DNA of 64,000 nt, from NCBI GenBank assembly GCA_977020255.1, contig CDROCS010002266.1:1-64000 (forward strand), given 5' to 3'. This document shows positions 1 to 45,033 of this stretch, one piece after another (the first letter of the stretch is position 1; each line of letters begins with the position of its first letter). The translations under genes were made by a program, and so were the position numbers. The notes beneath the pieces are model-generated. The model saw only the letters and a program-made list of their open reading frames with translations. It searched no databases and was not told the DNA's origin. The stretch is from Obrimoposthia wandeli (lineage: Eukaryota).

Positions 1-508
1 AAATTGCGAAGCAAATTGTCATACTATAAGACACAATTCAATTAGAGATACTTAAGATAGTGTAATACCGTATCCGATTCACAAATACGAAGGAAATCAA
101 TCAATTATTCTAACACCTTCATTAATTTCAGTCAGACAGACATACCAGAATACCCTTCGAGGCGAGTCTGGTAGAAGACAGCGAACCGAGTAACGATACA
201 GAATCAACAGAATCGAAGATAACATAATAGAGCGATTCGGAAGAACCATGGAGATTGAATTCGCTAAAGAAGGCAGAAAAAGACAAAACATAGAATTCGT
301 GAAACAGAATATACAAGAAAGACGAATTAAATCTGCAGAAGGAGCCGAGTCAGGAAGACCTCAACAAAGGAACAGACATCAGAGACAAAAATGAATACCT
401 CCATAGATACGAGAGGAAAGAAACTTCAGCAAAACTAACTAACATCGACGAACAGATAGAGATTAGAAAGACTAAAACTTGAAGAGTCAGAATTAATGCC
501 ACAAATAG

Positions 509-998
509 GTAGAGATCATTCCAGGTAAGTTATACCTCCGGAAATGTGGAGATGCAACAGATGAAAAAACTGTTGGAACAAGGGATAACATACGTGATCA
601 ACGTTACGGCTGAATCACAAATCTATAATATATCAGACAGTCAGAGCTATGACATTAAGAGTAAAAGACTCAATGGACGCTAATCTTCTCCAGATAGTTT
701 GAGAAACAAACGAAATACTTCACAGAGAACTCGGAACCAAGGAAAAGTGTTGGTACATTGTCAGAAAGGAATTTCTCGATCAGCAACTCTAGTATTAGCA
801 TACCTAATAAAGACTAGACGAATGCAGGTACTGAAAGCGCTAAAATACCTACAGGGAGAAGAAGTATTGCAAGCCAATCTTAATTTTTTTGCGGATAGAT
901 TCAACCCAAATTACCAACTTCTGTTGCAAGAACAAAGACGGATGGACGACATTCCTGAGGATCCAAAGGAAAAGATTTCCTCAAAGCATTATCACTGA
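509..998 (+). pseudogene. Dual-specificity protein phosphatase (DUSP), frameshifted
   Basis: The N-terminal part reads VEIIPGKLYL/GNVE...EQGITYVINVTAE (509-620, one frameshift). ORF 699-998 carries the catalytic loop KVLVHCQKGISRSATLVLAYLI (HCxxGxSRS) and a downstream NPNY resembling the conserved PN motif. Confidence 0.88.
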
Positions 999-1016
999 CT
1001 GGGGTTATTCTTGGCC

Positions 1017-1370
1017 GAGGTCGATAAAATTACACAGATAATGCCAAAAGTATTTTTATGTCATCCAGGAGAAAATATAGATACTGCTGGATTAGTTCAC
1101 AGTATCAACCAGTAATACTTATTTAACAAATCATTCGTCTAGTAGCCTCATTCTGATCGAGATAGAAGCGATGCACCAAACAACATCTGACGAAATTGAG
1201 CTCAAACCATCAAGCTGAAGTCTAGAAGAAACGGCGTTCTGATATATCAGAAAAGGTACGATGTTGGCGCCTACCATAGGTGTATCTTGTTGATGCCATA
1301 CACGCCAGAAGAAGCGATGGTCTACATCAAACAGAATAGACCGAATGAATTTCAACTGTTCCTGACTTAA
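1017..1370 (+). pseudogene. Possible second, degenerate DSP-like domain
   Basis: ITQIMPKVFL resembles the DSP N-terminal strand, GVLIY sits where KVLVHC would be, and TPEEAMVYIKQNRP resembles the DSP C-terminal helix. There is no catalytic Cys and there are several stops. Confidence 0.4.
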
Positions 1371-2139
1371 AAGCTAGCCGAAACAGCAACGAAACAAATG
1401 AAGCTGCAACAGCAGTACCCAGCACCGCTTTAAATTTACTTTCGCCAACTGACTTCCAGTTCTTATGCAGAACTAGCTAACCCATACGAAACTCAGTTCC
1501 GTTTCCTTGTCAGTACCATACACCGGCACTAATGATGCTATTAGTATTGTTAGGACTAATTGATGTGTGGATCATCGAAAATGTCTTCGATCTATGAGAA
1601 CCGACAGTAAAAGATTTCGGTTTGTAAAGATAGAAAGACCAAATGGACCAACAAAACAAAGTACTTGTGTATCTAGACGAAAGGATCGAGGATAACATAG
1701 TGAATGAAACTGATATTTTACCCACAAAACAGAATACTAACCAATTCCGAATGGATTACGAAGCTGACCGACAACCGCACACTTGACCGAATAATATCAA
1801 CAACATTCTGCCGGATGCAAGCGCGAAATAGAAATTGTAAAGGAAATACAAAAAGATGCTGATACAAAAGGACCAACGTATATATCTCGATGGCGATGTC
1901 ATCAAAACACGTGAGTATGGAAGTAAGAGAGTGATAATTGAAACAATGGAAGGACATAAAACATGCTTAAGTCCCGCCAAAAATGGATTCGGAAGTTGAC
2001 GATACAAGGTAAGAAGCCGGTACAGTTGATTATCAGGAAGAGATGGAATCGAGGAGATGTCAAACAACGACAGACAACAAAACGATACAATCAGAAACAG
2101 ATATCTCTCAAACGATTGATAATTAAAACCCTTTGTAAA

Positions 2140-2664
2140 AAGGTCGGTCAAGGCCCTGTGCCGCGTTGCACAAGGATTGATTTATGGAGTAGTAATTGGA
2201 TTGGTACTGCAAGCCATGCCAACCAGTAAAGCCGAATTGATGACACTATCCGAATATAATTTACATTTGAGAAATCTAGACAACACCCTAGAAATAATCA
2301 AGACATCCACAGTAGAGCCGTGATGATCATGTGTGTAAAAGGATGTCCAGGACGAATGTGTATAGTCCCAGCGACCGAAATGATAACATTAATGGCTGTG
2401 GAAGTTAGTGTTGTCACATGTGAAGACTACATATTTGGACAAACTAAAATAGTGCTTCTCAGTGACATGTCCAACCAAAGTGCACACAAATTTAAAATAT
2501 TAACCATCAAGAGTAAAGGAATACCAGCAGTACGTTACGGTATTCTAGAATTGGTCAATCCAATACTCGCACTGATCTATTGATTTATAATATTAATATT
2601 ACTCATCTTGTTTTGTTGTTCAAAGATAGAGTCGAGATCAAAAAAGAAACGTCATGATCTATAA
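2140..2664 (+). pseudogene. Small type I membrane glycoprotein-like ORF, disrupted
   Basis: Hydrophobic leader GLIYGVVIGLVLQAM, sequons NFT and NQS, Cys cluster CVKGCPGRMC, and C-terminal ILALIY*FIILILLILFCC followed by the basic tail SKIESRSKKKRHDL*. Contains a frameshift and an in-frame stop. Confidence 0.45.
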
Positions 2665-3879
2665 GACGAACAGGTCAAATGAACTAACAAAAATTCAACA
2701 CAATAATACCAAGACCACCATTTTTAGACGAACCAGCACCAGAGTACCAGCCAACGATATATGAACACATCGAGAAAAGACCGTACTATATGAGTAATTT
2801 GACTTGTTTCATTGAAGTTCCTGAGTTTAGGAATCGAACGATCATAGGAATCATGATCGCACAAATCACCACTACCAAGGCTGGTGTATGAGATTATGAT
2901 CAGTAAATGGAGACAAGACGTAATACGGGCAATATAAATAGAACTTCCCATACTAAACACAAACCACGTAGTAGACCTCCATCTACAGACGTCAGCAACT
3001 GACAATATCGATCAGAAATTGTATGTCATCCGACAGGTCAGAATAAAAATCGACCAAAATACACCCGTTTACAATTTAATATTATTGCATCATGAAAGAG
3101 TGTTATACCTACGGATAACTATATCAAAGAGGAAGCGGATTATCCAAAGTATCCGAACAAAGTCATTAATATTGCCTAGAGATGAGCGCATCTGGAAAAT
3201 TGTCGACAGGATTATGATCACAGGTAGACGACGTAAAGCCGTATGGAATTCCGTTAGAGATATTTTTCAGATTGCTAGAAACTGACAGCGTGACAGTAAA
3301 TGTGTCCCAGCCCAGATGGCGTAATCAGATTCGAAATCCAAAGCCAAATGTTAGTACCACATTTTAACACAGAATGTCTGTGTAATCGAATTGCCAGTAA
3401 TTCTACAGAGAACCTCGACCATAATCATGATAATAACAGGTGAAATATTCTACATAACTCTAAGATACCAGAACCGTCGATTTCGTAGATACGGTATAAG
3501 TATCAAACCCAGGAAAATCATTCCCAGAAGGCCAATCTAGTCAAAAGAAGGCAAAAGTAAACGAAAGTAAACGACATTCCAAGAAACCGACAGTGATCAA
3601 AACAAAGACAAAGTGAAAGAAAAGAGTCCAATTCCAGAAACCAAAGTCCAATTATTAAGAGGACAAGAGTGAGGGAACGATCACTAGATCCCAAACATCA
3701 TTTTCAATCCAAAATAATAATACCTGTTCCACCAGAAACAAAACACCCAAATCCCCGAATTTTTAGAAAATCGGACATAATACATGGAAACCGATCAAAA
3801 CCCATGGAAATATCATTCGAACCAACCAACAACAAAATGAAGTATGATTATAAATCATCAGACAGCGGAATAACAGGCG

Positions 3880-4083
3880 GTCAATGCCCTAATTGGAATG
3901 GCCGTAGTATCAACAACAGTGGTTTTATTGACAATCGTGTGCGTAAAAGGCGTCAAGTATGCCCAGGAATACGACGAAAATGCGAAGGATTGCGATGCTG
4001 TGACACACCATCATGGAGGAAGTGGAATTGCGACCCTTACCTCCGCCTCCCATCAAGATATGATGAGTCAGAGTTGTAGATAA
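3880..4083 (+). CDS. Small ORF with one predicted transmembrane segment
   Basis: ALIGMAVVSTTVVLLTIVCVKGVK is a hydrophobic stretch followed by a polar tail. No family recognised. Confidence 0.3.
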   Translation, partial: VNALIGMAVVSTTVVLLTIVCVKGVKYAQEYDENAKDCDAVTHHHGGSGIATLTSASHQDMMSQSCR

Positions 4084-4182
4084 ATTAGTGTGTGAAATAT
4101 GTAGAAATATCTAGAAGCGATTGTACAAATAGTAGAAGTATATAAAACTCATGTAGAAATTAATCATCATCATGTATTTAGA

Positions 4183-4484
4183 ATGGCGAAGAATGCCCAA
4201 TATGTTTGGAAGATCTAACCGAGACGAAGAACAAGACCCGAAACCTGCAACCATTTACACCACGAGGAATGTTTATCGACATGGATCAGAACTTATGGAC
4301 AGTTCGGACACCTCCAACATACCCTCGTTGCCCTGTATGCAGAAGACAATTCGCAAGATTCGTCATGTTAGAACCCAACCAAGAGGATGTATATGTACAG
4401 GTGGTATTCTGTTGGAAGAATTTCGGAGAGTGTTGGTGTTATTACTGTTTGTCAGATCGACAAAATCAGACCACTTTTGTGTAA
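4183..4484 (+). pseudogene. RING-H2 E3 ligase-like gene 1 (two frameshifts)
   Basis: EECPICLEDL (4188-4215), then in another frame CNHLHHEECLSTWIR, then PTYPRCPVCRRQF and CWKNFGECWCYYC. A TATA-like GTATATAAAA lies at about 4138. Confidence 0.8.
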
Positions 4485-4544
4485 ACATCACACAACCACC
4501 AGTCCTCAATCGAGCCCAAATTCAGCATCAACCCTCCCACAGTA

Positions 4545-4849
4545 ATGTCTGGAGAATGTTCCATCTGCTACGAGGCATCGTGGACTTCTACACCAAGCCC
4601 AACAACTGCGACCACCTCTTCCACGTCGAATGCCTCGAGACGTGGATCCCCATTGCCAACAGCAACAACCCCCTCGACTTCCCAACCTGCCCGATGTGCA
4701 GAGCGACCTTCTCAGTACACTACGTGTACAACCAAGACAGCCTCCAAGCAGTGGTACCCATCGTGCACTGCTGGAAAACCATCTGCGATTGCTGGTGCTC
4801 GTTCTGCGTGGAGGAGCGAAGCACAGGCCAGCCCAATCCCCAACAATAA
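4545..4849 (+). pseudogene. RING-H2 E3 ligase-like gene 2 (one frameshift)
   Basis: MSGECSICYE joins, with one base missing, to GIVDFYTKPNNCDHLFHVECLETW...PTCPMCR, giving a complete C3H2C3 pattern. It is followed by CWKTICDCWCSFC. Confidence 0.88.
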
Positions 4850-5183
4850 TCGAAGGTAACTTTCTGACTTGAACGTGACATCATGAACTACCCTGTGTAT
4901 CGCATACCGCGATAAACTAGCTACCATAATTGTAATCATAATTATATAATCTTGTGAACTGTAAATTGACCATTACCATTTTTATGTATGATGTTTAACT
5001 GAAATTGTAATTATTATACTGAATTTCTAAAAAAGACAATTTTTATGCTTAGTGTGAATGCGTAAACATGCCTAAAATTGAAACAAAACTCGGTAGGATT
5101 AGATAACTAAGGATTCATTTTGAAATAAAATTTAAATTAACGATGAGAACGGTGAACCCCAAATTGAAAGGAGTCATTTTCTC

Positions 5184-5715
5184 ATGCAGATGAAGTGCTC
5201 CGTATGCATGGAGAAGATTTGGGCGGTATCAGCATCCCCTGTCGGCTGCCGTCACAAATTTCACGAGGAGTGCCTCTATTTGTGGACCAAGGTTCGACCC
5301 CGGACAAATCACCTGTCCACTGTGCCGGACACCCTTCAAATGGACACTCCAGAGCCGCGGAAGACACAAAGGCACCCGATCGCCCGCAAGCTGCATTGGT
5401 GGCATACATTGCCAATGCTACGTGTGTCTCGCACGCCGGCGCGACACACAACTGGGCGTCCGCGAGAGATGGCGGTCTAGTCGAGACTGCCACTCGTGGT
5501 TCCAGGCCAGACGGCACTGGATCGAAAGCCATGCCATGAACGGGCAGGAATTCGACCTATTCATCGACAGCCCACATTTAACCCGGAGCCAACAACTCCA
5601 CTTGTACAACGGGGACAGTCCGTCCTTTCCCGACCTTCCCCTGGAGCAGGTTCTACGCTACCTGACCAGTCGGAACCAGCCGACAATAACAATTGACCTG
5701 ACATACGAAAACTGA
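5184..5715 (+). pseudogene. RING-H2 E3 ligase-like gene 3 with C-terminal SIM-like motif (one frameshift)
   Basis: MKCSVCMEK...GCRHKFHEECLYLW; after a frameshift near 5305 an open frame reads ITCPLCRTPF...CIGGIHCQCYVC...QPTITIDLTYEN*. Confidence 0.82.
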
Positions 5716-6554
5716 CACTTTCCTCCCTTCTTTCCTTCCTAATCAATAATTTTGTGTGTAAATTTTTAGTTGTGTATAAATAATAATGTATGGTTTGAGA
5801 CTTGCTCCAAATTATATATTATGTTTCCCACTGGAAAACCGGGATTTTGGAAAATTTTTTTTTGGGCATGTTTGTTGAATGATTGATTTTGTAGGGATGA
5901 ACCTAAAATCAACAGCCAGAGGCTTATTTAAGTAAAATCGATACGTTCCGGGGACGTAACTTTTTTGGAACCCCCGAGGTATGTTAAGGTTGAGAATTAA
6001 GAAAATTAAATATTTTAGTCGATTAAATACTAAAATAAAAATCCTTGAAAGCAAGGTCGAAAATTAAATTAAAATATTAATTTAAGTTTTAGAAGTAAAA
6101 TTAGTGAAATTTAGGGTAAAATTAGGAGGACCACGAAGGTCGTGTACAATATGAGATGTATATAAGTTAAATTAATTAACCCAAAAGTCGCAAAATATTA
6201 GAGTTAATTAAAAAGAAAACGGTTAATTAAAACAGTCAATCAAACTGTTTAGAATTTTGATTGACACTGTTCAAGGAATTTCCAAGGAGTTGATTGACAA
6301 GAACGTCAATTAGGGTAAGTTTTTTGTGTAACAGGCTGAATTAAGTCATTTTCAGCTGTCGACTGACTGACAGAATTTTTCTCTATAAAAAAGAGATCGA
6401 CAAGACAGAAATAACACACACACGACAGGATCAACAGAAGAAAAAAGCAAGAGGCTCTGGAAATCCATACTCTCGACCGGATCGGTAAGTAGCGATTGGG
6501 AATTCGATAAAATTAAACTTATTTAGATCAATTATTGCTGATAAGACATTGATC

Positions 6555-6910
6555 AAAAAGTAACCAAGTATCCGAAAGTATCCAAAAAAGTAACCAAGTA
6601 TCCGAAAGTATCCAAAAAAGTAACCAAGTATCCGAAAGTATCCAAAAAGTAACCAAGTATCGAAAGTATCCAAAAAGTAACCAAGTATCCGAAAGTATCC
6701 AAAAAATAACCATATCCGAAAAGTATCCAAAAATAACCAAGTATCCGAAAGTATCCAAAAAGTATCCGAAAAGTATCCAAAGTAAAGTATCCAAAAAGTA
6801 ACCAAGTATCCGAAAGTATCCAAAAAGTAACCAAGTATCCGAAAGTATCCAAAAAGTAACCAAGTATCCGAAAGTATCCAAAAAGTAACCAAGTATCCGA
6901 CAGTATCCAA
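6555..6910. repeat. ~29-bp tandem repeat (AAGTAACCAAGTATCCGAAAGTATCCAAA), about 12 copies, inside LTR copy 1
   Basis: Directly visible tandem array with internal rearrangements. Confidence 0.95.
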
Positions 6911-7077
6911 AGGACTAAGGTTGAGCGAGAAGAGTTCAGTATCCAACATATTAAGAGAAGACGATATCCGAAACCGAAAAGAAGACGATCTCACGAGCGC
7001 TCCATACGGAAACTGCGTGTCAGACATCTCACTCGTACCGAAGCAGCGAGTAACTGGTAAGATCACCGACTAGAGTA

Positions 7078-7510
7078 TTCATTGCCCCTAGTTGGCAATT
7101 AGGTTACCTTCATTACCCCTAGTTGGTAATTCTACATTTAAAATAATACATAAATTCATTGCCCCTAGCTGGTAATTAGGATCGTTGTCTCTTTAACACA
7201 ATCATTGCCCTAGTTGGTAATTAGGGATCGGACATTTATTCATTGTCCCCAGCGACAATTAGGAAACCTACCAGACGTTTTTTCCCGTAAGATTCATTGT
7301 CCCTAGCTGACAATTAGGTTCATTCATTGCCCCTAGTTGGCAATTCGGATAAATATTCATTGTCCCTAGTAGACAATTCGGTAAGACTCATTGTCCCTAG
7401 CTGACAATTCGGTTCGTTCATTGTCCGTAGTTGACAATTAGGAGTAAGTTTTCATTGTCATCTTGACAATTAGTTTTTTAGGAGATCCATTGTCACAGTA
7501 GACAATTCGG
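7078..7510 (+). repeat. Array of 12 palindromic hairpin motifs, TTC-ATTGYC-loop-GRCAAT-TMGG, with variable spacers
   Basis: Left arms start at 7081, 7112, 7158, 7204, 7242, 7296, 7326, 7359, 7390, 7420, 7454 and 7489. The 6-bp stem can pair in all 12. Confidence 0.92.
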
Positions 7511-7993
7511 GTCAAGCACACCCAGATAGAGTTAAGGAACAAAGAAACATTTAGCTAGAGATAAGAAGTAGGAGCGAAGAAATTTAAGAGAGTTGCGTTA
7601 TAGATTAACCAACCTGAGTAAGAAGACTAAACCTAAGAAACTTAATCACCTGAACGTAAAATCGATACGTGGTTCATCCCCACTTCTTGTAGAGACTTAC
7701 AGAAGTCCTTTAGGAATTTTATCATACTTTTTAGAAATACGTACATAAACGTATTGTGGTGTTAGTTACGTGAATTTTGAATAAACAATTTCCTACATTA
7801 GAACAAGTTGTTTTTACACCCTTCAGACTAAGAGACATCAAATCAAATACCTTCAGATAGTACAAGAGATTAGGCAACCATAACACTAAGTAGGCCACGA
7901 CCAACTTTAAGACCTGCTTCTAATCGAACTCACGTTGGGGCCCTCCGCACAGTCAAGAGGCTCTATACCAAGTTTCGTATAGAAACCCCAACA

Positions 7994-8545
7994 CTACTAT
8001 CTTTCCGACATTATTGACAATATACAAGATTCCTTCTTTTATCGAGTATTTTTTCGTCATTTCATCGTTTAGGTCTCCTTTCACCAACAATTCTTTGATT
8101 AGACTCAGTTCTTCATCTTCTTTCTGTTCTTTGATGATCTCTTTGTCTATTTTACCCGTCTTTAGCAAAATCTTCAGTAGATTTGCTTCTCCTTTTTGGT
8201 CATTGGTTTCATCTTCTTCTGGAATTATGTTTCCTTTCTCATCTACATTTGTCAATCTCGACAAACAATCTGCGTTGCCGTTCGACTTTCCGGTTCTATA
8301 ACGGATTTCTAGATCGAATTCGGCCAATTTTAGAAACCATCTGTTTAATCTACTCATCTCATCTCTATGTTTATATAAGAACTGTAGTGGTTTGTGATCT
8401 GTATACAGGAATACTTTTTGTCCTAGCAAGTAGTGTCTGTACTGTCTACATGAATACACTATGGCTAGACATTCCTTTTCGATAACAGAGTATCCTCTTT
8501 CGGCTCTGTTTAATCCTCTACTCGCATACGCGATGACGTGTTCTC
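7994..8545 (-). mobile_element. Ty3/Gypsy pol fragment (RT-associated RNase H and linker)
   Basis: EHVIAYASRGLNRAERGYSVIEKECLAIV...LYTDHKPL...RWFLKLAEFDLEIRYRTGKSNGNADCLSRL. The frame is cut at GKIVV by the LTR-like element. Confidence 0.93.
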
Positions 8546-8571
8546 TTCCTTCGTCATCCTCAACATGATGA

Positions 8572-9120
8572 AAAATCTATTTTAATTTACTTATAGTCTA
8601 AATTACACTCGCATTCAATCAAACTCTCGATATCTTATTATTATTTTTTTTTAAATAACATTCACTTGCTAAGACTTACTAGTATTTGCATTCACTTGCA
8701 TTCATACTTGTATTCATTTACATTCAATCTAACTATAATTTATTCAACGAAAACTCTATTTTAATTTACTTATAGTCTAAATTACACTTGCATTAAATCA
8801 AACTATCGACACTCTTATTTTTTAAATTACATTCACTTGTTAAGACACTTACTTGTATTGACATTCATACTAGCATTCATACTTGTTTTCATACTTGCAT
8901 TCATTTGCATTCAATCTAACTATAATTTATTCAACGAAAACTCTATTTTAATTTACTTATAGTCTAAATTATACTTGTATTCAATCAAACTATCGACACT
9001 CTTATTTTAAAATTACATTCACTTGCTAAGACTCTTACTTGTAAATTACATTCATACTTGTATGCATAATTTTATTCATTTACATTCATTCTAACTCTCA
9101 TTTATTCAAACTCTCATTCA
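8572..9120. repeat. ~180-187-bp tandem repeat, 3 copies
   Basis: CTATTTTAATTTACTTATAGTCTAAATTA recurs at about 8577, 8756 and 8943 with homologous continuations. Confidence 0.9.
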
Positions 9121-11110: not shown

Positions 11111-11789
11111 AAGTTTCCCCCTCCCCCTAGCGAAAACTCGGTTTTTATTTTAAAATTTGCGCAAAACGTTTTGCTTAAAATTTAAAAAAAAAATTTATTT
11201 ATGGCAGATGTAGGTCAAAGTCAAATTTTTCCTGAGTACACATGATATTTTAAGGTCAAGGTCATTTAAAGGTCATTATGTACTATAAGCTACTTTAAGC
11301 TAATTTTTGTTTGAATGCATCAATTTTGTTTGACACGTATTCAAATTTCGGTTGATTTAGGGTGTCTTCAGTCAATTTCTGAAGGTCATTCTCAATTAAG
11401 GTTATAATTTTTTAAATGACATATGATTTTAAAGTCAAGGTCATGACCTAGTATTTAAAAAGTTCTTTTGTTTTAATACATCAATTTTGATGCACGCAAA
11501 AAACATATTTTCTGAAAAATATTTTAGAAACTTATTTAAATAAATTTCAACTACTTTTATTTGAGAGTAAAAAAAGTTTTATAAATGTTAAACTGAATTT
11601 TTTATTTTGTATAATTGAATCTTCTTTATTTGTGAGTAGAAAAAGTTTTGTAATCTTAAGCTATTTATTACACATAACTTGCAAAAGTACATTTTTAAAC
11701 CTATGAGTTAATTAAAACAAGTAAATAGAGATAAAGAGAGATAGTAAAGAATAATTTTTATTAAAGATACATACATTGTCATCATACAC

Positions 11790-12260
11790 CTTCATATCTT
11801 CACAATATCATAATCTTCATTACTTCGATCCATCATCATTACCGCAATCCTTCTTCTCATCAATACAATTCTTCGTCATAATCCAGCATCTTCATTTCAT
11901 CAATCCATCATCGTAATCATCTATCTTGTCTTCATCTTAATCCTCCATCTAATTCAACATCTAAAAATATTTATTTACAAAATAATTATCACAATCTTAT
12001 CTGGAAATCTGACATCAATTCATCTCATCATCTTCATTATCGCAATTTCTCATCTCATCATCTTCATTTCCGCAATCCATCATCTTTCATCGCAATCATT
12101 CATCTTGTCTTCATCATAATCTTCATCTCATCATTGCATTCCTTTATTGTCTTCATCTTGTCTTCATCAGCATATAATCTTCATCTTCTTCATCTTCATC
12201 ATCTAAAAATAATTATTTACTAGATAATTAAGAAAAACTTACCTACAATTAGAAATCAAT
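11790..12260 (-). pseudogene. Acidic D/E-rich gene with two 40-nt introns (copy A)
   Basis: Minus-strand intron 12203-12242 (GTAAGT...TTTTTAG) and a paralogous intron at 11961-12000 with its donor mutated to AT. The flanking exons are GAT/GAA-rich. Confidence 0.55.
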
Positions 12261-15207
12261 TCATTATTAATCGCTATATTGTATTTTCAATTTTATTGTT
12301 GATTATTTTCAAAATTAATTAGTTAAAACAAAATCAATTATGTTTTAAATTACTAATATAAATAATTGAAAATATTTATTAAGTTAAAATAGTTAATATA
12401 TTTTATTTGTTACTTAAATTACTAATAATATAATTTGAAATATTTATTAATTATAATAATCAATACATTTTAAAATATACATTTTAAATATACATTTTAA
12501 AATAAACATTTTAAAATATGCAGAGAAATATATATATTATGTATTGATTCATACATGTTCATAGAGGGAAATTAACAAGGTGTTTACAGAGGAGAATTCC
12601 CCGAGAAGGATTATTTAATGATACTATTCAATTGTTTATCCGTTGAAGCTCGATTCTAATTGATTGATAATGTTGTTTATGTAAATCTCTTCGTATTAGT
12701 CATATCCTTGAAGGCTTACATTCCTCGCTTACACACGTAGTCCTTGTTATTGTTTCACTTACTGGATTAATATTTTCTCTATGATTATTTCTATTATAAT
12801 TCATATTAGCATATAAATTACTACCAGAACCAATATATGATAAGCATAAGACCATCTTAGAAGAAATTTACGAAATGTTCAAAAAAATTGTGCTATTTTA
12901 CGAGGAGTTCAGGAAATTTATGATATTTCAAAGATTAAACAGGGTGATGGTTTCAGAAGAGAAATTAGAGGGTTTTACAAGCAAATTCAAGCATACATAT
13001 TAATAACTTAGAAGGACTTTAAAAGAGATAATATTATAGAAAACAAAGTGTTGGTTCAGAGATGATACTAGCCAGATGGTTCTGGAAGATAAATTTAAGA
13101 TATTTTGCTGGTTACGAAGTAATTTTAGGAAATGTGTAATGTTTAGAGGATATGGGAAACGGAAATTTGTGATATTTAGAAGATTTAACGAGAGTATTAC
13201 TTTCAGAAGAGAAAAATATGGGTTTACAGAGAGATTTATCAGAGGTGATGGTTTCAGAATAGAAATATATCATGTAAAGGGGTGCAGAGAGTGATTTAAG
13301 ATGTTTCAGAAGAGGAAATGATATAGAAAACAAATTCACCGTCCGAAGGAGATATTACCTAGTTGCTTCTAGAAGAAAAAATTGATGATACGTTTGCAGT
13401 TAAGAAGTAAATTCAGGAAATGTATGATATTCCGAAGATATGGGTAATATAAATTAACAAGGTGTTCAGGAAATTTATGATATTCGGGTTTAAGCATAGA
13501 TGATTAGCTAATTTTCTTCTACTTAATCCCTCAACCTTCGTGAAATTATCTACTTAACCTCCATACTATTATTCTCTTCTTAGAGGAGATATTACAAGAT
13601 TTGTATTATTCTAAGAGGACATTACCCAAATACATATCTTTATCGATATTTCTATCATAAAGATGGGATACATGATTCGAATCAATAATTTAGCTGTAAT
13701 ACCCTCTGATATAATTCCTATATTAAGTCGCAGTAATTTAGGTAAAGATAATCAGAGTATGTCTCGGTTAGAGTATTAGCAGTCAACCTGTCAGGGTAAT
13801 TCGAGATATAATTTCCGCATACTTGATAATTGATTTATAGTATAACTCTTAAATTAATCCAAGGCCGTTGAAGAATCAGTTATATCTAAATAACCTATCT
13901 TTATTTGATAATTTTTATATAAATGCATTCCCACTGAAGCCGATAAGTTATATCTAATGTCTGTTAAATAACGAGTCTCTGAAATTGAGGAGTTAGAAAT
14001 TATTATGAATTATAGGAAAATGGCTAAACCGATGCTAAAGTGAATTATTAATAGACTTGTATCGATATTTTATGGAAAGTTGTGATATTTAGATAGCTCT
14101 AGAAGAGACATTAATGATATGATCAGGAAATTTATGATATCTAATCCGACCCTAAAGTGATTTATTGACATGCTTATATCAATATATTCAGGAAATTAAT
14201 GATTTCCCTAGGAAATCCACCGTATTAAGGTGCTTCTAGAGGAGATATTTAGGGAACAGCATACATTGATGGAGTGTGTATTTGATTCAGTTTAGTAGTT
14301 TTAACGGAATTTACTCCATATGATGATATCAGTGACTATTCTCCAATCAATAACTTCCAGCAAAATTTGATCAATATGATGGTGAAAGTATGAATATCTT
14401 AGATTTATTTATCGGATGTATGTGCAGATGAGTTTACATCAAGAATACCTCCGATGATAGAATGTCTCCAAGTAAGATATTATCATAGGTTTGCGTAGGT
14501 TTTCATATCCTTACAGTTAAAATACCGAAAGCTACTATGGAATTGATCCCTGTGTGCTGCTTGAAGAAGGTATTTACGGTGGAAGGACATTTATCGACCA
14601 ACATTACTAACTCTGAAGGTGAATATATTTTGATAACCCACAATTTTCACCAGACGGAGATTTACCCATATCAATTAGATGGAAGTATATGTAAGTAACC
14701 CGAATGAATTACATGATATACTTGAAAATCTTAGAAAATAATATTGGAAGACTTTATTATACAAAGAAGACTGCTCTGATCATTTTGCTTGCAAGAAGCT
14801 CTAGAAGAGAAATTAGGGATATTTAAGAATTTTTTAGGAGAAATATTAATGATATATCTAGGAAATTCATGATATTTAAGTGATTCTATAATAGAAATAT
14901 ATGTTATCTTCATGAAATCTTTGGTATATAAGTGATTCTAGAAGAGAAATGTATAATATTCTAGGGAAATCATCGATATTTAAGTGCTTCTAAAGGAGAA
15001 ATTAATGATATGTTTATCTAATTTGATATATTTAGAAGCTTCCAGTGTGATTCCATTGGCCTTTTAACTCATCATTCAAAGAAGTATCCCTCGGATTGCC
15101 GCAGATGTAGGCTAGATTTCATACATAGAAGATACCACTGTATAAGGGCGAACTAAGGAATTTGATTATTATAAGTCATTTAAGATGATTAGAGCTTAAT
15201 TTCGTGG

Positions 15208-15412
15208 ATGTTAGGAAAATCTCATGGAAGTTAGGGTAATCCCATGGTAGTTGAGAGGAAAATCTAATACTAGTTAGGGAAATCTCATGCTAGTTAGGAA
15301 ATCTTGCAGTAGTTAGGGAATTCTCATGGAAGTTGAGAGGTTTAAGGAGGAAAATAACGTGGTAGTTAGGATAATCTCATGGATACTAGGAAAATCTCAT
15401 GGATGTTAAGTG
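15208..15412. repeat. Degenerate ~20-bp minisatellite, GTTAGGGAAATCTCATGGWA
   Basis: About 9 imperfect copies; related units occur at about 44070-44150. Confidence 0.75.
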
Positions 15413-16159
15413 GTTTAAGAGAAAAAATATAACAATTATTAGGGTTTAAGGACAGAATAGCATATAATCAGACCAATATAAAACCTACCTCTTTCATTAA
15501 AGCAGTCATAGATGGATGTTTTTTAAATAACAGACATAATTTGACATTACTTATACATCAATGTTGATTGATTGAAATATTCTACATTACAGTTGTTTAA
15601 CTTTAAACATTTTGTTGTAAAAACTAAGATATTAAGACTTTTGAGTTAGATAATCAGGTTAGGGTGTAAAAGAAAACATTGGAAATTTTGTAAGAATGAA
15701 TCTAATAATCAATAAATCGAAATATATCTATCCATATCTTCTAACATCTCTATCATGAATCTTCTTTCAAAAACTTTCATCCCTAACTTTCAGAGAAATT
15801 AACAAATACCATAAATTCATATATTTCCATACATATTGATTATTGAAAAACTGAAATTATCAATATTATCAACATCTAATCTCACTATCATCAACCATCA
15901 TACAATTTTTTATTTACATATAACAAATATTTAAAAGTTTTTAAGGCTTTTAAGGCTTTTAAGTTTTTTGAAAATTTTGAAAATTTAAAGAAAAATAATT
16001 TTTCAAATTTTGACTTTGAAAATTTGAATTTTCGCGGATAAATATTGATGCATTTAAACAAAAATGACGCATTTTAACAAAATAATGGAATGACCTTGGA
16101 ATGACGTTAGAATGAGCGTGATGTACTCGGGAGAATTGGTTGCCGGGGAATGGTTAGTG

Positions 16160-16365
16160 TTAGGGATATGGCTTAGGGTTAGGCTTAGGGTTAAGCTTGG
16201 TTAGATTTAGGGTTAGGAATATGGCTTAGGGTTAGGCTTAGGGTTAAGCTTAGGGTTAGATTTAGGGTTAGGGATATGGCTTAGGGTTAGGCTTAGGGTT
16301 AAGCTTAGGGTTAGATTTAGGGTTAGGGATATGGCTTAGGGTTAGGCTTAGGGTTAGGCTTAGGC
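16160..16365 (+). repeat. Telomere-variant array with a 55-bp higher-order period
   Basis: Unit TTAGGG TTAGGG ATATGGC TTAGGG TTAGGC TTAGGG TTAAGC TTAGGG TTAGAT; GGGATATGGC recurs at 16271 and 16326. Confidence 0.95.
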
Positions 16366-16419
16366 TTAAAGTTTTTGAATTTTTATTGATTTACGAATCA
16401 CCACCAATATAGACGTAGG

Positions 16420-21794: not shown

Positions 21795-22466
21795 AACGTT
21801 TAAATTGAAATTGATTTCGATCAAAATGATTAATAATATTATAGCTGTGTAATCTATGTATTAAGAGTATTGGGGATCATATGCCGGCTAGAGGAGGTAC
21901 TGATGCGGGACAGTACTTTTATGCATAGGGGCACATATAAATGTAGTGCCCTTGAAACGGAATGGCACAGGAAAGGACGCAATGGAGGAGATTCAGGAGT
22001 GATATGGGTTAAAGGAGGAGAGTTTCTGGTTACAACGACAGGGAAGGAGAGTGGAGATGGGGAGAGCATTGGTGATGGCAGCAATATTGTCGTGATGATG
22101 AGGTTGAAAGGGGGAATGTAGGAGGAAAACAACGTTTAAATTGAAATTGATTTCGATCAAAATGATTAATAATATTATAGCTGTGTAATCTATGTATTAA
22201 GAGTATTGGGGATCATATGCCGGCTAGAGGAGGTACTGATGCGGGACAGTACTTTTATGCATAGGGGCACATATAAATGTAGTGCCCTTGAAACGGAATG
22301 GCACAGGAAAGGACGCAATGGAGGAGATTCAGGAGTGATATGGGTTAAAGGAGGAGAGTTTCTGGTTACAACGACAGGGAAGGAGAGTGGAGATGGGGAG
22401 AGCATTGGTGATGGCAGCAATATTGTCGTGATGATGAGGTTGAAAGGGGGAATGTAGGAGGAAAAC
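21795..22466. repeat. 336-bp tandem duplication, apparently identical copies
   Basis: 21795-22130 repeats at 22131-22466; the ORF track shows identical 83-aa ORFs at 21870 and 22206. Confidence 0.95.
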
Positions 22467-25400
22467 AATGAGAGAGCGGAGAGGGTTACGAAGTTGGATA
22501 TAATATTGACTTGGGATGAATGGACGGAAGCACGGAATACGGAAGAGGATTCAGACAAGAGAAAGAGGTATAGGGATATCGTACGAAGATTCAGTGACCA
22601 GAAGAACAGAGAGTTAGAGCAGGCGGTGGAAAACAAAGACCAATTCAAGATAAAGGAGAAAAAGAGTGAAATAACAAAAGCAGAAAAGGAATTTGAGGTT
22701 AGAACCACAAAAGAGTCAAGAGAAAATAAAAATCAAGAATCAAGAGAAAATAAGTCAGGCCAAAATGTGTGGAAGGTACTAAAAAAGATTAGTATCCCGT
22801 ATTTCTTTGATTGAAAGTTGGAGGGCAATATTTGGTACTGTGATCGCTCAGACCAATGCGCCAAAGCAAGAAAAGATGCTGCAGCTGATGGACTATGTGA
22901 GGCGGGAACCTTACAGGTTAATTCAAAACCTTGGGTTCAAGGATGCAAGTTACGATGAAGCTTTAAGATTGCTAGAAGAAAGGTACGGAGGAAGGGAAAG
23001 AAATTATAGAGGTTTGATGGACGAAGTTGAAAAGTTTAGAGTGATAAGATGGAGAGAAGACCAAGATCTGGAAGCCTTATACAATTAATAAACAAGATAG
23101 TAATCAGAGCAAGAGAAGAAGACAACAAGGGTGATCTTGGAAATGGGATTATGTTCAACAAGCTGTTGAGGAAGTTGCCAATTTTAGGAGTGATGGATTG
23201 GACGAAGTGGATCCAACAAAACGGGGAGAAAGAGAATGTATGTACGTTAAAGATATGGGCCCAGCAAGAAAGTGAGAATCCAAGAAGAGCCAATGAGGTT
23301 AATGGAAGTCGTGAGAATCAAAGAAGGCGAGCCAGTGACGTTGAAAAACCCAGGAGATGGAACAATGACACACGTCATTACACTCCACATTATTTGTGAA
23401 TAGTAAAGGAAATGGAAAACGGTTATAAACCAGTCCACAAAAGTCGAAAGAAAGGCATAATGTGCAAAATGTAAAGCCAACCACTATACTGATCAATGTG
23501 AGCAGATTAAACAGTTGACAGTGGCAGCGAGGCAGAAGTGGGTCAAGAGAGAGAAAATATGCAAGAATTGCTTACGCAGTAATCACACGGTGGAGAAGTG
23601 TAGATTTAATCAGTTATGTCGGACATATGGATGCCACGAAAAGAATCACTAGTTCTGCATGATAAAGGGGGGCAAAGAATAGTAGGTCAAACAATGGTAA
23701 TAAAAGACCGACAACAGAAGGCACGCGCATTCAAAGCGTTAAGGACAGTGCCAGTGATATTAAGAAGAAAAGGCATTGAAACATGTGCGAACGCACTTTT
23801 AGATGACGCTAGTACCCTATCATATATAAGTAAGGAATTAGCTTGCACTTTGAGAGCACGAGGTACAAAAATAGAACTACCTGTGGGAGTTATTGGTGGT
23901 GAGGTGTGTAAGTTAGACTGCGAAGAGATAGAAATTAGCAGCAGATATGGGAAAATTAAACGAGTAGTAAAGATGTTGACGCTAGAGGAAATTGCTGATA
24001 GTTTAGAAGTGATAAACTGGTCTGAAGAATCATCTTACTGGCAACATTTAGCAGGTATTGAATTTTCGAATTCAGAGTCCCAGAAGAAGGTGGATATACT
24101 GATTGGAGCTGATAACCTCGACTTATACCGATGTATTAAAGAAGTAGTAGGTCCACATGATGCACCAATTGCGAGATTAACACCACTAGGGTGGACATGT
24201 GTTGGACGAGTAAAAAGACAAACGCAGTCAATCAATCGACATGTGCTATACACTATTCAGTAAGGAAGAAGTTGATATAGATTTAAGACGATTCTGGGAA
24301 GTTGAATCTGTTCCTGACGGAAATAGGAAGATAAATCACGATGAGTCTCAATTGCTACACTTATCAAGAGCAGAAGTGGTACATGAGAACAACTGCTATG
24401 AAGTCAAGTTGCCATGGAATGAGAAAAAAATCCGAAATGCCAATGAATAGCTCCATGGTCAAAAGAAGGTTAAATAGTCTCATCCGAAAGTTGGATAAGG
24501 ATCGTTTATTAAAAGACGACTATTCAACGGTAATAGAAAATTATATGACTAAAGGGTACATAAAAAGTTAACGTTAGATGAAGAGAAAGAAACTAAGTGG
24601 TTACTACTTCACTTCCCAGTGATAAAACGGGGGAAAATACAACAAAAGTTAGATTAGTCTTTGACGCAGCGGGAAAAAGTAATAATATGAGTCTAAATGA
24701 GGCAATCCATTGTGAACCCAAGTTCCAAGGAGACCTTATAGCAATTCTTCTGCGATTCCGAAGGAATGCAATAGCATTAGTATGTGACATTTCAGAGATG
24801 TACTTACAGATCAAGATATGTAAGGAAGACCGGCCATGGCTAAGGTTCTTATGGAGAAATAGAGAGAACCAGAGGAAAATGTATGAATTCCAGAGAGTAG
24901 TCTTTGGAATAAACGCCTCACCGTTCTTGGCTCAACTGGTAACCAGAGTAAACGCAGAAAATTTTAAAGTGAAGTATCCAAGAGCCAGTGAGACAATTTT
25001 GAAATCAACTTACATGGACGATAGTCTAGATTCAGTGTCTTCAGTAACCGAAGCAGATAAGCTAAAAGATAAGTTGGTGGAAATATGGGGGAATGCAGGG
25101 ATGATTGCAAGAAAGGGGATTAGCAATAGCCCAGAGGTTAATAAAAAATACCCCTTTCAGAAAGAGCAAATGTCTTACATATAGATGACAAAGAGTGTAA
25201 CTTAACAGTAAAGACATTAGGCGTACACTGGGATGCTAAATCCGACAAAATTTTCATAGTGACAAAATTTGAAGAAGTCGACGACATAACCAAACGATCT
25301 TTCTTAAGTCTTTTATCAAAAGTGTTTGATCCATTAGGTTTTGTTAGCCCGATAATCATCAGAGCCAAAATTATTATTCCGGAAGTCTGTCTTACAGGGT

Positions 25401-27560
25401 CGGATTGGGATCAAAAAGTAAATCAAGAATTAACTAAGAGAATAGTACAATAAATAGCGGATTGTAAGCGACTGAAAGATATCAAAATTCCGAGATGGAT
25501 GATAACGAGTGAAAAACTGCAAGAAATTCACGTATTCGTGGATGCCTCGACTACTGCGTATGGTGCCGTTGCATACATGCGTAATGAAGACACAGGCAGA
25601 GTGACGATGCGATTGATGGCAGTTAAGAGTATAGTTGCCCCAGTGAGAATAAAAAGTGTACCCATATTAGAGCTGATGGCTGCAGTGATTGGAGTGAAGT
25701 TAGCGCAAACGATATGGAAGGCCTTAAATTTAACGGAGGTAAAAACAACATTTTGGTCGGACAGCAAGAACGTATTATGGTGGATACGCCAGCCGGGAAG
25801 AGACTACAATCCCTTGTAGCCAACCGAGTGGGGATGATCCAAGAGAATACCGATATAAAGCTCTGGAGGTATGTGTCCACGAAGCTAAATCCAGCAGATA
25901 TACTATCGCGGGGAGTCGATGTACGGCTATTGATTGATGAGACAATTTGGTGGGAAGGACCGGAGTACCTAAAGGAACAGAAAGAAAATTGGCCAGTTAA
26001 TTTAGACGTAGAAGAAATACAGTCAGATAAAGAGTGAAAAAGAGACGGTACAAGGAGGTAAAGATGTTCATACAGGAAGGAAACTGTTTCCAGATAGAGA
26101 CTTATTCCGACTTGACGAGGTTGAAGAGAGTCTTAGTTTGGATACTACGATTTGCACGAAATATAAAGTTACCTCAAAATCGCAGACTTGTAGGCGAGCT
26201 GAAGATGGATGAGGTGGAAGAAGGGATGCAGTGGTTGATAAAGCATGAACAGATTCAGTACTTCTGCAAGTAATACCAAAGGTTGATAAAGAGGAAAGAG
26301 ATTGAGAGAACAAGCTCCTTGCTCAGGTTGAAGACGTGGGTGGATGAAAAAGGGATAATCAGAGCCAATACCCGAATTATTAATGCGGAGTTTTTAGATA
26401 ATGACACAAAATATCCCATAGTGTTATCGAAAAAAAGAGTTGACTGACTAGATTAATCATAAAGGATACACACAAGAAGTTACGACATTACGCCGGGGTA
26501 AAGCATATACTGAATGTAAGCCAAAATAAATATTGGATTCCTAAAGTACGAAGAGTAATCAAAGAAATAGAGCAAGAATGCTTAGACGGCAATAAAAGTA
26601 AAGCCACAGGGATGGTCGAAGAGATGGTCCCATTGCCGGGATTCAGATTCGAACAACCGTTAAGGGCCTTTGCAAACGTCGGAGTGGACTTTGCAGGACC
26701 ATTCATCACAAAACAAAGACGGGGAGAGTGAGGACTAAGAGATACCTTTGCCTTTTTACATGCCTGCAAGAGCGGGACATTCAATTAAAGGTGGCTTATG
26801 GTTTGGATTTCGATGGGTTTATTAGGACATTAAAAAGATTTATAGGAAGAAGAGAAAGACCACAAATGAAAATATTGGATAATGGCACAAATATTGTGGG
26901 GGTGGTGAATGAAGTGAGCGAATTGGTACGGGATGGTTATCGGATTCAAAAAGAGTTAGTAAAGGAGGAGATACGTTGGGTCTTCAACCCACCACATGTA
27001 CCACATTTTGGAGGGGTCTTTGAGATCATGATAAAATGTGCAAAAAGGGCTATATACCGGATACTAAGAGGAGCCGAAGTGGCAGACGAAGAATTACAAT
27101 CAGTGTTCATCGAAGCTGAAAGCCTTGTAAATTTTAGGCCCATTGGAGTTAAGAGCATGGATGCGAAAGAGAATGAGGCGCTTACACCCAACCATTTTTT
27201 AATAAATCAGGCGTATGCTGAGACGAAGTTTGGGAGCGATGAAATAAAGTCGAAGCACAGATGGAAGTTTGTCCAAAGGTTAACCAGTATGCTATGGAAG
27301 CGATGGATGGAGGAGATTGTACCCATGTGGGCAACGAGACAGAAGTGGCATGACGCACGCACACCGTTACTGATCGATGACATCGTGTGGATAATAGAGA
27401 AGCAAGAGGAGAGAGGTAAATGGAAATTAGGAAGAGTGGGAAAATTAGAGACAGGAGAGGATGCAAGGTGAGAGTAGCAAAGATTAGGGTGGGAAGTAAG
27501 CTTATAGTTAGAGTGCTACATAGCGTGTGTAGATTAGATTGGGTATTTTGAGCTGGTTTA
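21795..27560 (+). mobile_element. Bel/Pao LTR retrotransposon gag-pol, decayed
   Basis: Gag (EKMLQLMDYV...LLEERYG), Cys/His knuckles (CAKCKANHYTDQC, CKNCLRSNHTVEKC), protease ALLDDASTLSYIS, RT KVRLVFDAAGK, ILLRFRR and YMDDSL, Pao RNase H HVFVDASTTAYGAVAY, and integrase GVDFAGPF, DNGTN, PHFGGVFE and LTPNHFL. Confidence 0.95.
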
Positions 27561-37703: not shown

Positions 37704-40591
37704 TGTTAGGTTTAGGTTCTGAAATAAATTAAATAATTAATTGATTTTATAGGGAAATAGAAATCCTTGAAAGCAAAGTTAGAATTAAATAAATTTAATA
37801 TCAAAATTAAAATTGATGAGATTTAAAATTGTAATCAAATATTTAAGGACCACGAAGGTCGTGTGTGATGCGTAAGTATTTATAAAAGTTAATGTTAACC
37901 AAAAGGGCCCCAAAAAAGAAAAGATTAAACACAAAAACGAAGAGAAATCAATTAGAGGCAGCAATACAGAGAATTAGAAGCAACAATTTAGAAGAAGAGA
38001 GAATCAAACCCATTATCGCGAACATTATTGCTAACTGAATCCATTAGCGCCACTTAGCGCTAGACAAGTCATACCGTCGAAGAAACGTTGAGGACAAGCA
38101 AAATCGCGAACTGAATCCATTAGCGCCACTTAGCGCTAGACAAGTCATACCGTCGAAGAAACGTTGAGGACAAGCAAAACGCCAACCGGATCACAGACTG
38201 CTCCGGAGATAGAAAATAGTAAGTGCACTTAGCTAAGTGCCATTAATTGATTTTCCTTGAGAAGAATTTAGTAGAATCCTATAAAAGCAAGATTTGGACT
38301 TGCAGGCAACACAACGGAATCGCACAACTGAATCGAGACACAAATCGAAATCGACTGGGAATAAGGAGTCCAGATAGTAAAAGAAGATATCGTTAGCTCG
38401 TGAAAACAGGAATCGAAAAGGCAAAGCGGATCGACAGACAAGCAGGATCGACAGAGAAATTTCGGCTCTGGATTGCGCCCTGAGTTTACGTTCGGAATCG
38501 GCGTTTCTAAAGTCAACTACAAAGTAAATAATATTGGTGAGATAGAAATCTTAAAGTAAAGTTTTTATATCAATTTTCAAATCTTAAAGTGTGAATCATT
38601 ATATCAATTTTCAAATCGTAAAGTGTGAATCAAAGTAAAGAATATTGGTGAGATAGAAATCTTAAAGTAAAGTTTTTATATCAATTTTCAAATCTTAAAG
38701 TGTGAATCATTATATCAATTTTCAAATCGTAAAGTGTGAATCAAAGTAAAGAATATTGGTGAGATAGAAATCTTAAAAAGTAAAGTTTTTATATCAATTT
38801 TCAAATCTTAAAGTGTGAATCATTATATCAATTTTCAAATCGTAAAGTGTGAATCAAAGTAAAGAATATTGGTGAGATAGAAATCTTAAAGTAAAGTTCT
38901 TATATCAATTTTCAAATCTTAAAGTGTTAATTATTATATTAATTTTCAAATTGTAAAGTGTGAATCAAAGTAAAGAATATTGGTGAGATAGAAATCTTAA
39001 AGTAAAGTTTTTATATTAATTTTGAAATCTTAAAGTGTGAATCATTATATCAATTTTCAAATCGTAAAGTGTGAATCAAAGTAAAGAATATTGGTGAGAT
39101 AGAAATCTCAAAGTAAAGTTTTAATATCAATTTTCAAATCTTAAAGTGTGAATCATTATATCAATTTTCAAAATCGTAAAGTGTGAATCAAAGTAAAGAA
39201 TATTGGTGAGATAGAAATCTCAAAGTAAAGTTTTTATATCAATTTTCAAATCTTAAAGTGTGAATCATTATATCAATTTTCAAATCGTAAAGTGTGAATC
39301 AAAGTAAAGAATATTGGTGAGATAGAAATCTTAAAGTAAAGTTTTTATATCAATTTTCAAATCTTAAAGTGTGAATCATTATATCAATTTTCAAATCGTA
39401 AAGTGTGAATCAAAGTAAAGAATATTGGTGAGATAGAAATCTCAAAGTAAAGTTTTGATATCAATTTTCAGATCGTAAAGTGTGAATCAAAGTAAATTTT
39501 CGAATCTTAAAGTGTGAATCAAAGTAAAGTTTTGATATCAATTTTCAAATCGTAAAGTGTGAATCAAAGTAAAGTTTTTATATCAATTTTCAGATCGTAA
39601 AGTGTGAATCAAAGTAAAGTTTTTATATCAATTTTCGAATCTTAAAGTGTGAATCAAAGTAAAGTTTTGATATCAATTTTCAAATCGTAAAGTGTGAATC
39701 AAAGTAAAGTTTTTATATCAATTTTCGAATCTTAAAGTGTGAATCAAAGTAAAGTTTTGATATCAATTTTCAAATCGTAAAGTGTGAATCAAAGTAAAGT
39801 TTTTATATCAATTTTCGAATCTTAAAGTGTGAATCAAAGTAAAGTTTTGATATCAATTTTCAAATCTTAAAGTGTGAATCGAAGTAAAGTTTTGATATCA
39901 ATTTTCAAATATTAAAGTGTGAATCAAAGTAAAGTTTTGATATCAATTTTCAAATCTTAAAGTGTGAACCAAAGTAAAGTTTTTATATCAATTTTCAAAT
40001 CTTGAGGTGTGAATTGGAGTTTCTGTATTGTATCAAGAGTACAGAAGGTGTCCAGATTTAAAGTGAAGTTTCTATATCAAAATTAAAGAAAGTTTTTTAT
40101 TTTTAACTAGAGAGTTGATAATCTCATTTCGAACAAAGAACTAAGAATACATTAAAATAAGGGTATACTGCCCCAAAATTGTCTTTAAAATCTAGAGCAC
40201 CCGCTCTCTAAAATCAATCCCTATCTTTAGAGTAAAGACTCTAGTGAAGAAAAAGCATAACCTTAAAATCGATACGTGGTTCATCCCCACTTGTGTAGAG
40301 ACTTACAGAAGTCTTAGGAATTACTGTAACTTTTTAGAAATACGTACGTAAACGTATTGTTTTTTTTTAGTCTAGTGTTAACAATAACCGATTTCCTACA
40401 TTAGAAAGCATTGTTCTAAACCCTTCAGATTAAGAGACATCGGAAAACAAACACCTTCAGATAAGCATTGAGACAGGCAACTATAACATTAAGTAGGCCA
40501 CAACCATCCTTAAGACCTGCTTCTATAAGAACTCACGTTGGGGCCCTCCACATTCAAGAGGATCTATAAGTTTCATATAGAAACCCCAACA
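37704..40591 (+). mobile_element. Solo LTR-like element, copy 2 (2888 bp), with AATT target-site duplication
   Basis: TGTTAGG...CCCCAACA is flanked by AATT (37700-37703 and 40592-40595). The uninterrupted site is visible in element A at about 11581-11595. Confidence 0.88.
38521..40005. repeat. Compound tandem array: ~111-bp unit x9, then ~45-bp unit x11
   Basis: TGGTGAGATAGAAATC recurs at 38535, 38646, 38757, 38870 and onward. After about 39480 only the AAAGTAAAGTTTT(T/G)ATATCAATTTTC..ATC.TAAAGTGTGAATC subunit repeats. Confidence 0.95.
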
Positions 40592-40789
40592 AATTGTTAA
40601 ACTGAATTTTTTTTTTAAACTTATTTTGTATAATTGAATCTACTTTTATTTGTGAGTAGAAAAGGTTTTTGTAATCTTAAGGTATTTATTACACATAACT
40701 TGCAAAAGTACATTTTTAAACCTATGAGTTAATTAAAACAAGTAAATAGAGATAAAGAGAGATAGTAAAAAATAATTTTTATTAAAGAT

Positions 40790-44952: not shown

Positions 44953-45033
44953 CCCTAACCCTAACCCCGCCATAGCCCTAACCCTAACCATAACCCTAAC
45001 CCTAACCCTAAGCCATACCTCTAACCCTAGCCC
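44953..45033 (-). repeat. Telomere-variant (CCCTAA)n array
   Basis: CCCTAA units interrupted by GCCATA, the same interruption seen in the reverse complement of 16160-16365. Directly followed by the subterminal block. Confidence 0.93.

Follow-up and report, generated by a model that had tools for sequence, protein, structure and literature searches.

HIV TAR is a structured, protein-bound RNA of the R region with a bulge, a stem and a small loop, and it is a single element with a virus-encoded ligand. The RxRE of HTLV-1 is likewise a structured, protein-bound RNA in the LTR R region, and RxRE-1, a stem-loop element in U3/R, serves the export of incompletely spliced RNA (PMC3504254). In foamy virus, experiments showed that U1 binding and RNA structure at the major splice donor of the R region control polyadenylation (PMC3694450), and conservation in long R regions has been linked to stem-loops (PMC3601003). 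The packaging sequences of Ty1 and Ty3 are described as not precisely defined (PMC4974528), and the gypsy insulator consists of 12 Su(Hw) sites, separated by AT-rich spacers and located in 5' non-coding sequence of the element (PMC2374998). Burro/GYPSM1 elements of planarians are giant gypsy-like elements of over 30 kb with env between gag and pol (PMC6431247). Retroviruses are known to carry structured RNA elements in the R region, each as a single structure; here we describe a multimeric array.

The array lies in a 64,000-nucleotide stretch of the Obrimoposthia wandeli genome, hereafter the window. The first-pass annotation of this DNA had placed it inside an LTR, and comparison of 30 genomic copies bore this out by fixing the ends of a 2,012-bp 3' LTR (TGTT..AACA, Table 1). 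Three full copies are flanked by 4-bp target-site duplications, and the 5' LTRs are followed by a PBS, which we take to be that for elongator tRNA-Met. LTR pairs lie about 22 kb apart, and the whole element measures about 24 kb. Pfam analysis of full copies found a Gag zinc knuckle, a Monjiviricetes-type fusion glycoprotein, two protease-like domains, BIR, RING, reverse transcriptase (RT), RNase H, integrase, a dual-specificity phosphatase and a further RING. The TG..CA LTRs, target-site duplication, PBS and order protease-RT-RNase H-integrase are those of Ty3/gypsy elements, and the env-like fusion domain between gag and pol (PF24664, E 1.6e-72) and the BIR and RING cargo (zf-C3HC4_3) are those of the Burro type. 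By domain content and the description of Burro, the host element is probably a Burro-like, env-bearing Ty3/gypsy element.

Table 1 Features of the LTR and its surroundings in the window
Feature	Position	Strand	Basis or remark
Decayed 3' internal region of element	1-5981	+	Dual-specificity phosphatase remnant 684-995, RING remnant 5136-5477
3' LTR of ~24-kb Burro-like Ty3/gypsy element (probable class)	5982-7993	+	30 copies, target-site duplications, PBS, domains
TATA-like box, putative promoter	6384-6390	+	Sequence; similar boxes in part of sampled LTRs
First splice-donor-like site TCG/GTAAGT	6482-6490	+	Sequence; donor-like scoring across LTRs
29-bp minisatellite, 12 copies	6554-6911	+	Unit differs in almost every sub-lineage
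Second splice-donor-like site CTG/GTAAGA	7054-7062	+	27 nt before unit 1
Array of 12 putative RNA hairpins: 6-bp stem, loop C-NNN-G-YY, predicted lower stem under 2-nt 3' bulge	7078-7510	+	
Purine-rich stretch, part of array-bearing cassette	7511-7657	+	Non-array LTRs match only from ~7633-7659 on
Block common to nearly all sampled LTRs	7658-7993	+	LTR comparison
AATAAA poly(A) signal, then GU/U-rich tract; putative R/U5 border	7780-7785	+	AATAAA here in 71/73 LTRs
Two acceptor-like CCTTCAG motifs, AG at 7825-7826 and 7855-7856	7812-7856	+	Conserved; putative acceptors
Target-site duplication CTAC	7994-7997	+	Identical 4-mer before near-identical 5' LTR in L002

With Burro/GYPSM1, this element shares giant size, thousands of copies, the env-like fusion domain between gag and protease, and BIR with RING (PMC6431247); the RPB1 of its host is also closest to flatworms, which supply its six best named relatives. 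It differs from the Burro described there in its length of about 24 kb, in the phosphatase and RING region after integrase, and in giving no ankyrin, MATH or BCL2 match in the pieces scanned. The description of Burro consulted here mentions tandem repeats in a figure legend and no LTR hairpin array (PMC6431247). Relatives in the RNase H region numbered 593; the 120 listed include no named Burro sequence, and the best identity among the matches listed was 58%. Genome-wide we counted 5,314 LTR-PBS junctions (control 0), and the unit pattern matched 61,455 times (control 498), i.e. about 61,000 units. Assuming nearly full-length copies, the family would account for very roughly a tenth of the 1.35-Gb assembly (5,314 x ~24 kb), a figure that may include haplotig duplicates. 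The array-bearing lineage is young, since five LTR pairs, taken from the closest matches, differ by only 1-2 substitutions per ~1,040 bases. The element is inserted into a further member of its own family, within the RNase H/integrase region (window 7994-8576, minus strand), and this flank continues beside L002.

Elsewhere in the window, a 1,930-codon stop-free frame at 56029-61821 encodes RNA polymerase II RPB1, with a GC content of about 0.55 in an AT-rich genome, a tail of degenerate 21/63-bp repeats and only 66-68% identity to its best matches. A remnant of another LTR element with DUF1758, RVT_1 and DUF5641 lies at 22190-27471 and is presumably of BEL/Pao type. Interstitial telomere-like TTAGGG-type repeats occur on opposite strands at 16152-16368 and 44952-45034, an older duplication or repeat pair (91-97% alike in pieces, ~28-kb spacing) at ~11600-15900 and 40600-43200, and 111-bp and 45-bp satellites at 38520-40014.

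The array consists of exactly 12 units, whose left arms begin at 7081, 7112, 7158, 7204, 7242, 7296, 7326, 7359, 7390, 7420, 7454 and 7489. We recovered the same arms, loops of 5-7 nt and irregular spacing of 30-54 nt that had been annotated, and the two non-Watson-Crick pairs noted in units 3 and 4 are indeed G.U on the plus strand. The loop lengths hold for the window itself, but the 6-nt loops of units 4 and 12 proved to be private one-base losses, the extra base being present in 29/30 and 28/30 aligned copies. Perfect 6-bp hairpins numbered 10, whereas 300 dinucleotide shuffles yielded 0.3 on average and never more than 3; with G.U allowed, there were 14 against a mean of 3.5 (maximum 9). 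The conserved unit exceeds the palindrome and reads about TTC-ATTRYC-CNNNGYY-GRYAAT-TMGG, the flanks TTC before and TMGG after being kept too.

For comparison among copies, we followed the 5,314 junctions in contig order and sampled the LTRs at the first 73, dropping L092 as a duplicate of L070. The array was present in 28 of them with 11-14 units each, 339 in total; three further arrays had 15 (two) and 13 units (one). In these 339 units we tallied 49 G.U/U.G against 3 A.C/C.A combinations. The AUU/AAU part of the stem is invariant and pairs 4-5 covary: pairs 2 and 3 were unchanged in 339/339 and 338/339 units, pair 4 was G-C in 275, A-U in 32, G.U in 30, A.C in 1 and U.U in 1, pair 5 was U-A in 224, C-G in 104, U.G in 9 and C.A in 2, and the closing pair 6 was C-G in 330 and U.G in 9. 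Pair 1 showed 14 non-pairs, every one in a terminal unit. Genome-wide, pair 4 was G.U in 3,343 matches against 19 of the mirror A.C (15/19 real units), and pair 5 showed 1,542 wobbles against 176 mirror C.A mismatches, counts that reflect amplified lineages rather than independent events. Among the matches listed, C.A at pair 5 fell in the terminal unit in 81/100, almost always together with a single loop variant able to re-pair in a shifted register.

With a palindromic stem, G.U and A.C mirror each other in duplex DNA, so neutral mutation or a dimeric DNA factor would treat both alike; a plus-strand hairpin would not. In units 2, 3, 4, 6 and 7, pair 4 or 5 occurs in two Watson-Crick states plus a G.U or U.G intermediate, and orthologous units move among G-C, G.U and A-U. 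The A.C combination was seen 0 times against 12.6 expected, and 2 times against 35, though each half-site is common at its own position. Wobble without A.C in orthologous units argues against a double-stranded DNA palindrome. We then placed the changes on a parsimony tree of 47 LTRs, combining the 22 sampled arrays that have twelve units with the 30 closest matches less five partner LTRs (25). Units 1-11 gave 13 wobble-making and 0 A.C-making events and unit 12 gave 3 and 2, so that 16/18 were wobble-making overall. Against the substitution spectrum of the spacers and downstream LTR, this excess has p ~0.003 for units 1-11 and 0.018 including unit 12, values that are approximate because recombination weakens the tree and a single midpoint-rooted reconstruction was used. 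The pairing is local and unit-specific, since A.C cells made up 3/678 within units against 37-49/622 when the arms of neighbouring units were paired.

The annotated plus-strand RNA hairpins with G.U-tolerant covariation thus drew much stronger support from comparison with other LTR copies than the window by itself could give. Judged by these substitution patterns, local plus-strand pairing is very probably under selection. Changes per column amounted to 0.35 in stems, 0.45 in the downstream LTR and 1.43 in spacers, the last figure possibly inflated by alignment gaps. Folding energy did not favour a strand: for the whole array, z was -3.84 on the plus and -3.56 on the minus strand, with units predicted to pair long-range with each other. 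Single units were marginally stable at a mean of -5.4 kcal/mol on the plus strand and -5.8 on the minus strand, the minus strand being slightly better in 124/179.

In many of the folds predicted for single units, a lower stem sits beneath a 2-nt 3' bulge. Loops were 7 nt long in 277/339 units, and 6-nt forms also occur. Of these 277, 261 have C at position 1 and 275 have G at position 5, with 12 forms of the three bases between them, which suggests a pseudotriloop-like C-G pair across the loop. The evidence for that pair is mostly invariance: the 100 listed of 143 non-C loops genome-wide show almost no compensation, and compensation is limited to one series in the terminal unit (C-G, U.G, U-A). 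In bulge, stem and small loop the unit resembles HIV TAR. A TAR-type element was rejected, the array beginning at least some 650 nt past the putative start and not at the very 5' end of the RNA, and coding DNA not tracking it. Loops of the Smaug, Roquin and histone stem-loop kinds did not fit either. We also discarded units as decoy 3' splice sites: YAG occurs in 287/339 loops, but the array is kept in L117, where 11/13 loops lack it. Pseudotriloops are described as having a hexaloop, a G-C closing pair and a C-G cross-loop pair with a 3' pyrimidine bulge (PMC3884659), and the iron-responsive element (IRE) has a CAGUGN hexaloop with an AGU triplet, a 5-bp upper helix and a bulged C (PMC8466369). 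The units share with pseudotriloops, including the IRE, a near-invariant loop C1 and G5, a free middle of three bases, 3' pyrimidines and the 6-nt forms. They differ in the usual 7-nt loop, the C-G instead of G-C closing pair (C-G in 330/339, as above), the C-NNN-G-YY loop without AGU and the 6-bp upper stem, so neither a classic pseudotriloop nor an IRE fits. In Rfam the array had no match, to the IRE or otherwise, and the two sub-threshold matches lie outside it.

Array presence is scattered across the family. The other 45 of the 73 sampled LTRs lack it, and on a tree of the LTR 3' end and PBS region (72 rows, L075 left out) its distribution takes at least 5-6 changes. The non-array elements L080, L113 and L137 are mostly 95-99% identical per 500-bp bin to the array element L053, and across 20 elements array and non-array copies were mostly 95-99% alike in the Gag region and the 3' coding region where aligned (the 3' regions of four, L051, L089, L109 and L124, did not align usefully). 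At the DNA level this gives no support to an array tracking an element-encoded protein variant, small protein differences between lineages being possible. The array cassettes have probably been swapped between copies by recombination. In non-array LTRs, the slot after the donor-like site is filled by unrelated AU-rich minisatellites that are unstructured (mean z 0.1, n=37); the idea that all of these are hairpin arrays failed, z lying below -1.65 in only 5/37 on the plus and 8/37 on the minus strand. Almost every sub-lineage has an LTR minisatellite unit of its own (periods from ~13 bp up to more than 100 bp), with coding DNA 95-99% alike, which points to very fast turnover that, speculatively, may be linked to escape from silencing.

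Two other hairpin families were observed in these elements. The small hairpin TAGAGY-loop-RCTCY occurs in 1-5 copies in 35/44 non-array against 1/28 array LTRs, 300-700 nt before the LTR end and nearer the conserved block (LTRs L080-L139); its core was fixed in the scan, so covariation was weakly tested. A second array, with TCGRG/CTCGA stems and a 49-bp period (L031:3715-4680; L160-L179), lies behind the PBS in 20/20 elements with 2-32 matches each. Its pair 4 is A-U or G.U (212:96, each site being counted twice in the scan) and never A.C.

A donor-like site lies 26-31 nt before unit 1 in 28/28 array LTRs, against 1/28 on the reverse strand, and a similar one precedes the three further, differently spaced arrays. 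With a generic scoring matrix and a threshold of at least 4 bits, a donor-like site precedes the main minisatellite in 27/55 LTRs, compared with 0/55 on the reverse strand and 7/55 in an upstream control. Counted from the putative start, the array lies about 650-1,100 nt in, and the poly(A) signal follows 270 nt downstream of it. Patterns for intron-less LTR copies, which fit only lineages with matching exon ends, gave 0 matches genome-wide for the first donor and 4 against 11 in the control for the second; this absence also fits an LTR that is never spliced. In four sequence runs of one sample, with contigs of unrecorded kind, LTR and leader were covered alike (L007:1395-3472, with the first donor outside), a coverage that bears on neither strand nor splicing. 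The arrangement resembles foamy virus in that a donor lies upstream of the poly(A) signal inside what is probably R, with RNA structure near the donor; it differs in being known from motifs only, and what is described at the foamy virus donor is an alternative structure rather than a series of repeated hairpins (PMC3694450).

We propose that the array acts in cis, as an RNA element within the long R region of its LTR. In the plus-strand transcript each unit would fold locally into a 6-bp stem and a 7-nt loop, likely with a C-G cross-loop pair over three free bases, above a bulged lower stem. A protein would read the fixed stem base and the shape above it, and 11-15 copies would give avidity. 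This protein is probably an RNA-binding protein of the host, since coding DNA is nearly the same in elements with and without the array. The likeliest job would be control of the donor 27 nt upstream, keeping genomic RNA unspliced, and/or holding U1 snRNP there so that the 5' LTR poly(A) signal is skipped, a parallel to the R-region donor of foamy virus suggested by position. We hold this account, a multivalent host-protein site controlling donor and poly(A) choice, as a tentative one with somewhat less than even confidence. Other sub-lineages fill the same slot with unrelated minisatellites, so the array would be one interchangeable solution and not a core replication signal. The array is comparable to RxRE, being structured and putatively protein-bound RNA in R (PMC3504254). 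It departs from RxRE and TAR, single elements with a virus-encoded ligand, in its 11-15 repeats, in its distance from the inferred start and in having no cognate protein variant that tracks it. It would work like known R-region RNA elements, and it belongs to none of those we tested.

The same hairpins could instead affect how the unspliced RNA is exported, localised, stabilised or translated, like RxRE or a transport element. All the structural evidence applies equally to such a role and RxRE-1 offers a precedent, but the fixed distance to the donor-like site would go unexplained and the Gag zinc knuckle is the only element-encoded RNA-binding domain found in the pieces scanned; we regard this as unlikely, if worth serious attention. 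The annotation had offered a multivalent protein-binding, packaging or processing array, of which the multivalent RNA hairpins stand, protein binding is putative and packaging has become less likely. If the element's own Gag/NC read the array as a signal for packaging, dimerisation or strand transfer, this would agree with a position inside the probable R region and with an array kept in reverse-transcribed RNA, no intron-less copies appearing among thousands. Such a signal seems improbable, given an array at both RNA ends (in both LTRs) rather than in all copies and at the 5' end only, its absence from 45/73 LTRs of elements with near-identical coding DNA where compared, and a different hairpin array behind the PBS in 20/20 elements. 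That leader array fits better and may be the better packaging-signal candidate.

Tandem duplication of a chance palindrome, with pairing kept by template switching or biased mutation including ADAR editing, would make the array a functionless by-product. Some repeat array fills the slot in every LTR, the others being unstructured, and stems change not much more slowly than the downstream LTR. Template switching, however, would yield perfect palindromes and not stable G.U states, 10/13 wobble-making events are C>T, impossible for ADAR (a polarity set by the choice of root), the rate of change in spacers is four times that in stems, subject to the gap inflation mentioned, and the pairing is unit-specific; a by-product is distinctly improbable. 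C-GNA-G, the loop of some units, is a stable DNA triloop, and the arms presumably resemble Sox or RFX half-sites, as palindromic duplex sites for a dimeric enhancer or insulator factor, or a single-stranded DNA hairpin, might have it. A dozen or so short motifs separated by AT-rich spacers, within an element of gypsy type, also mirror the gypsy insulator, whose Su(Hw) sites are non-palindromic DNA, whereas the constraint here is single-strand pairing (PMC2374998). The duplex alternative, which the first-pass annotation had kept in view, is disfavoured by the near absence of the mirror A.C alongside common G.U, a distinction that a duplex-binding dimer cannot make. Plus-strand single-stranded DNA is short-lived, and we see only a slight chance for DNA sites of either form. 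A CRISPR-like locus or small-RNA precursor, suggested by the superficial look of repeats with unlike spacers, is scarcely credible: the spacers are not uniform (4-39 nt, mostly 4-29) and are inherited at orthologous positions or homogenised, with no sign of acquisition, and stems of 6-10 bp are too short for Drosha/Dicer, the array having no Rfam match.

The open-access literature, to which the search was confined, and Rfam yielded no account of an LTR array of several covarying hairpins in a gypsy element, and the unit motif had 0 matches in metagenome contigs and 0 in viral contigs. The array appears, from the comparison of copies, to be a real, selected, multimeric RNA element with a putative binding ligand. 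It is conceivable, though doubtful, that swappable LTR cassettes tune RNA processing in this family, each lineage having a multivalent array behind its R-region donor and the largest lineage a structured one, a natural MS2-like 12-mer recruiting a host RNA-binding protein. The roughly 61,000 genomic units could also titrate such a protein when the element is expressed. In this family one small RNA motif exists in tens of thousands of natural variants, with array-less recombinants as natural controls and the array as a direct bait for the putative host protein. The family makes testable in an invertebrate how LTR elements with a long R region avoid splicing or stopping in their 5' LTR.
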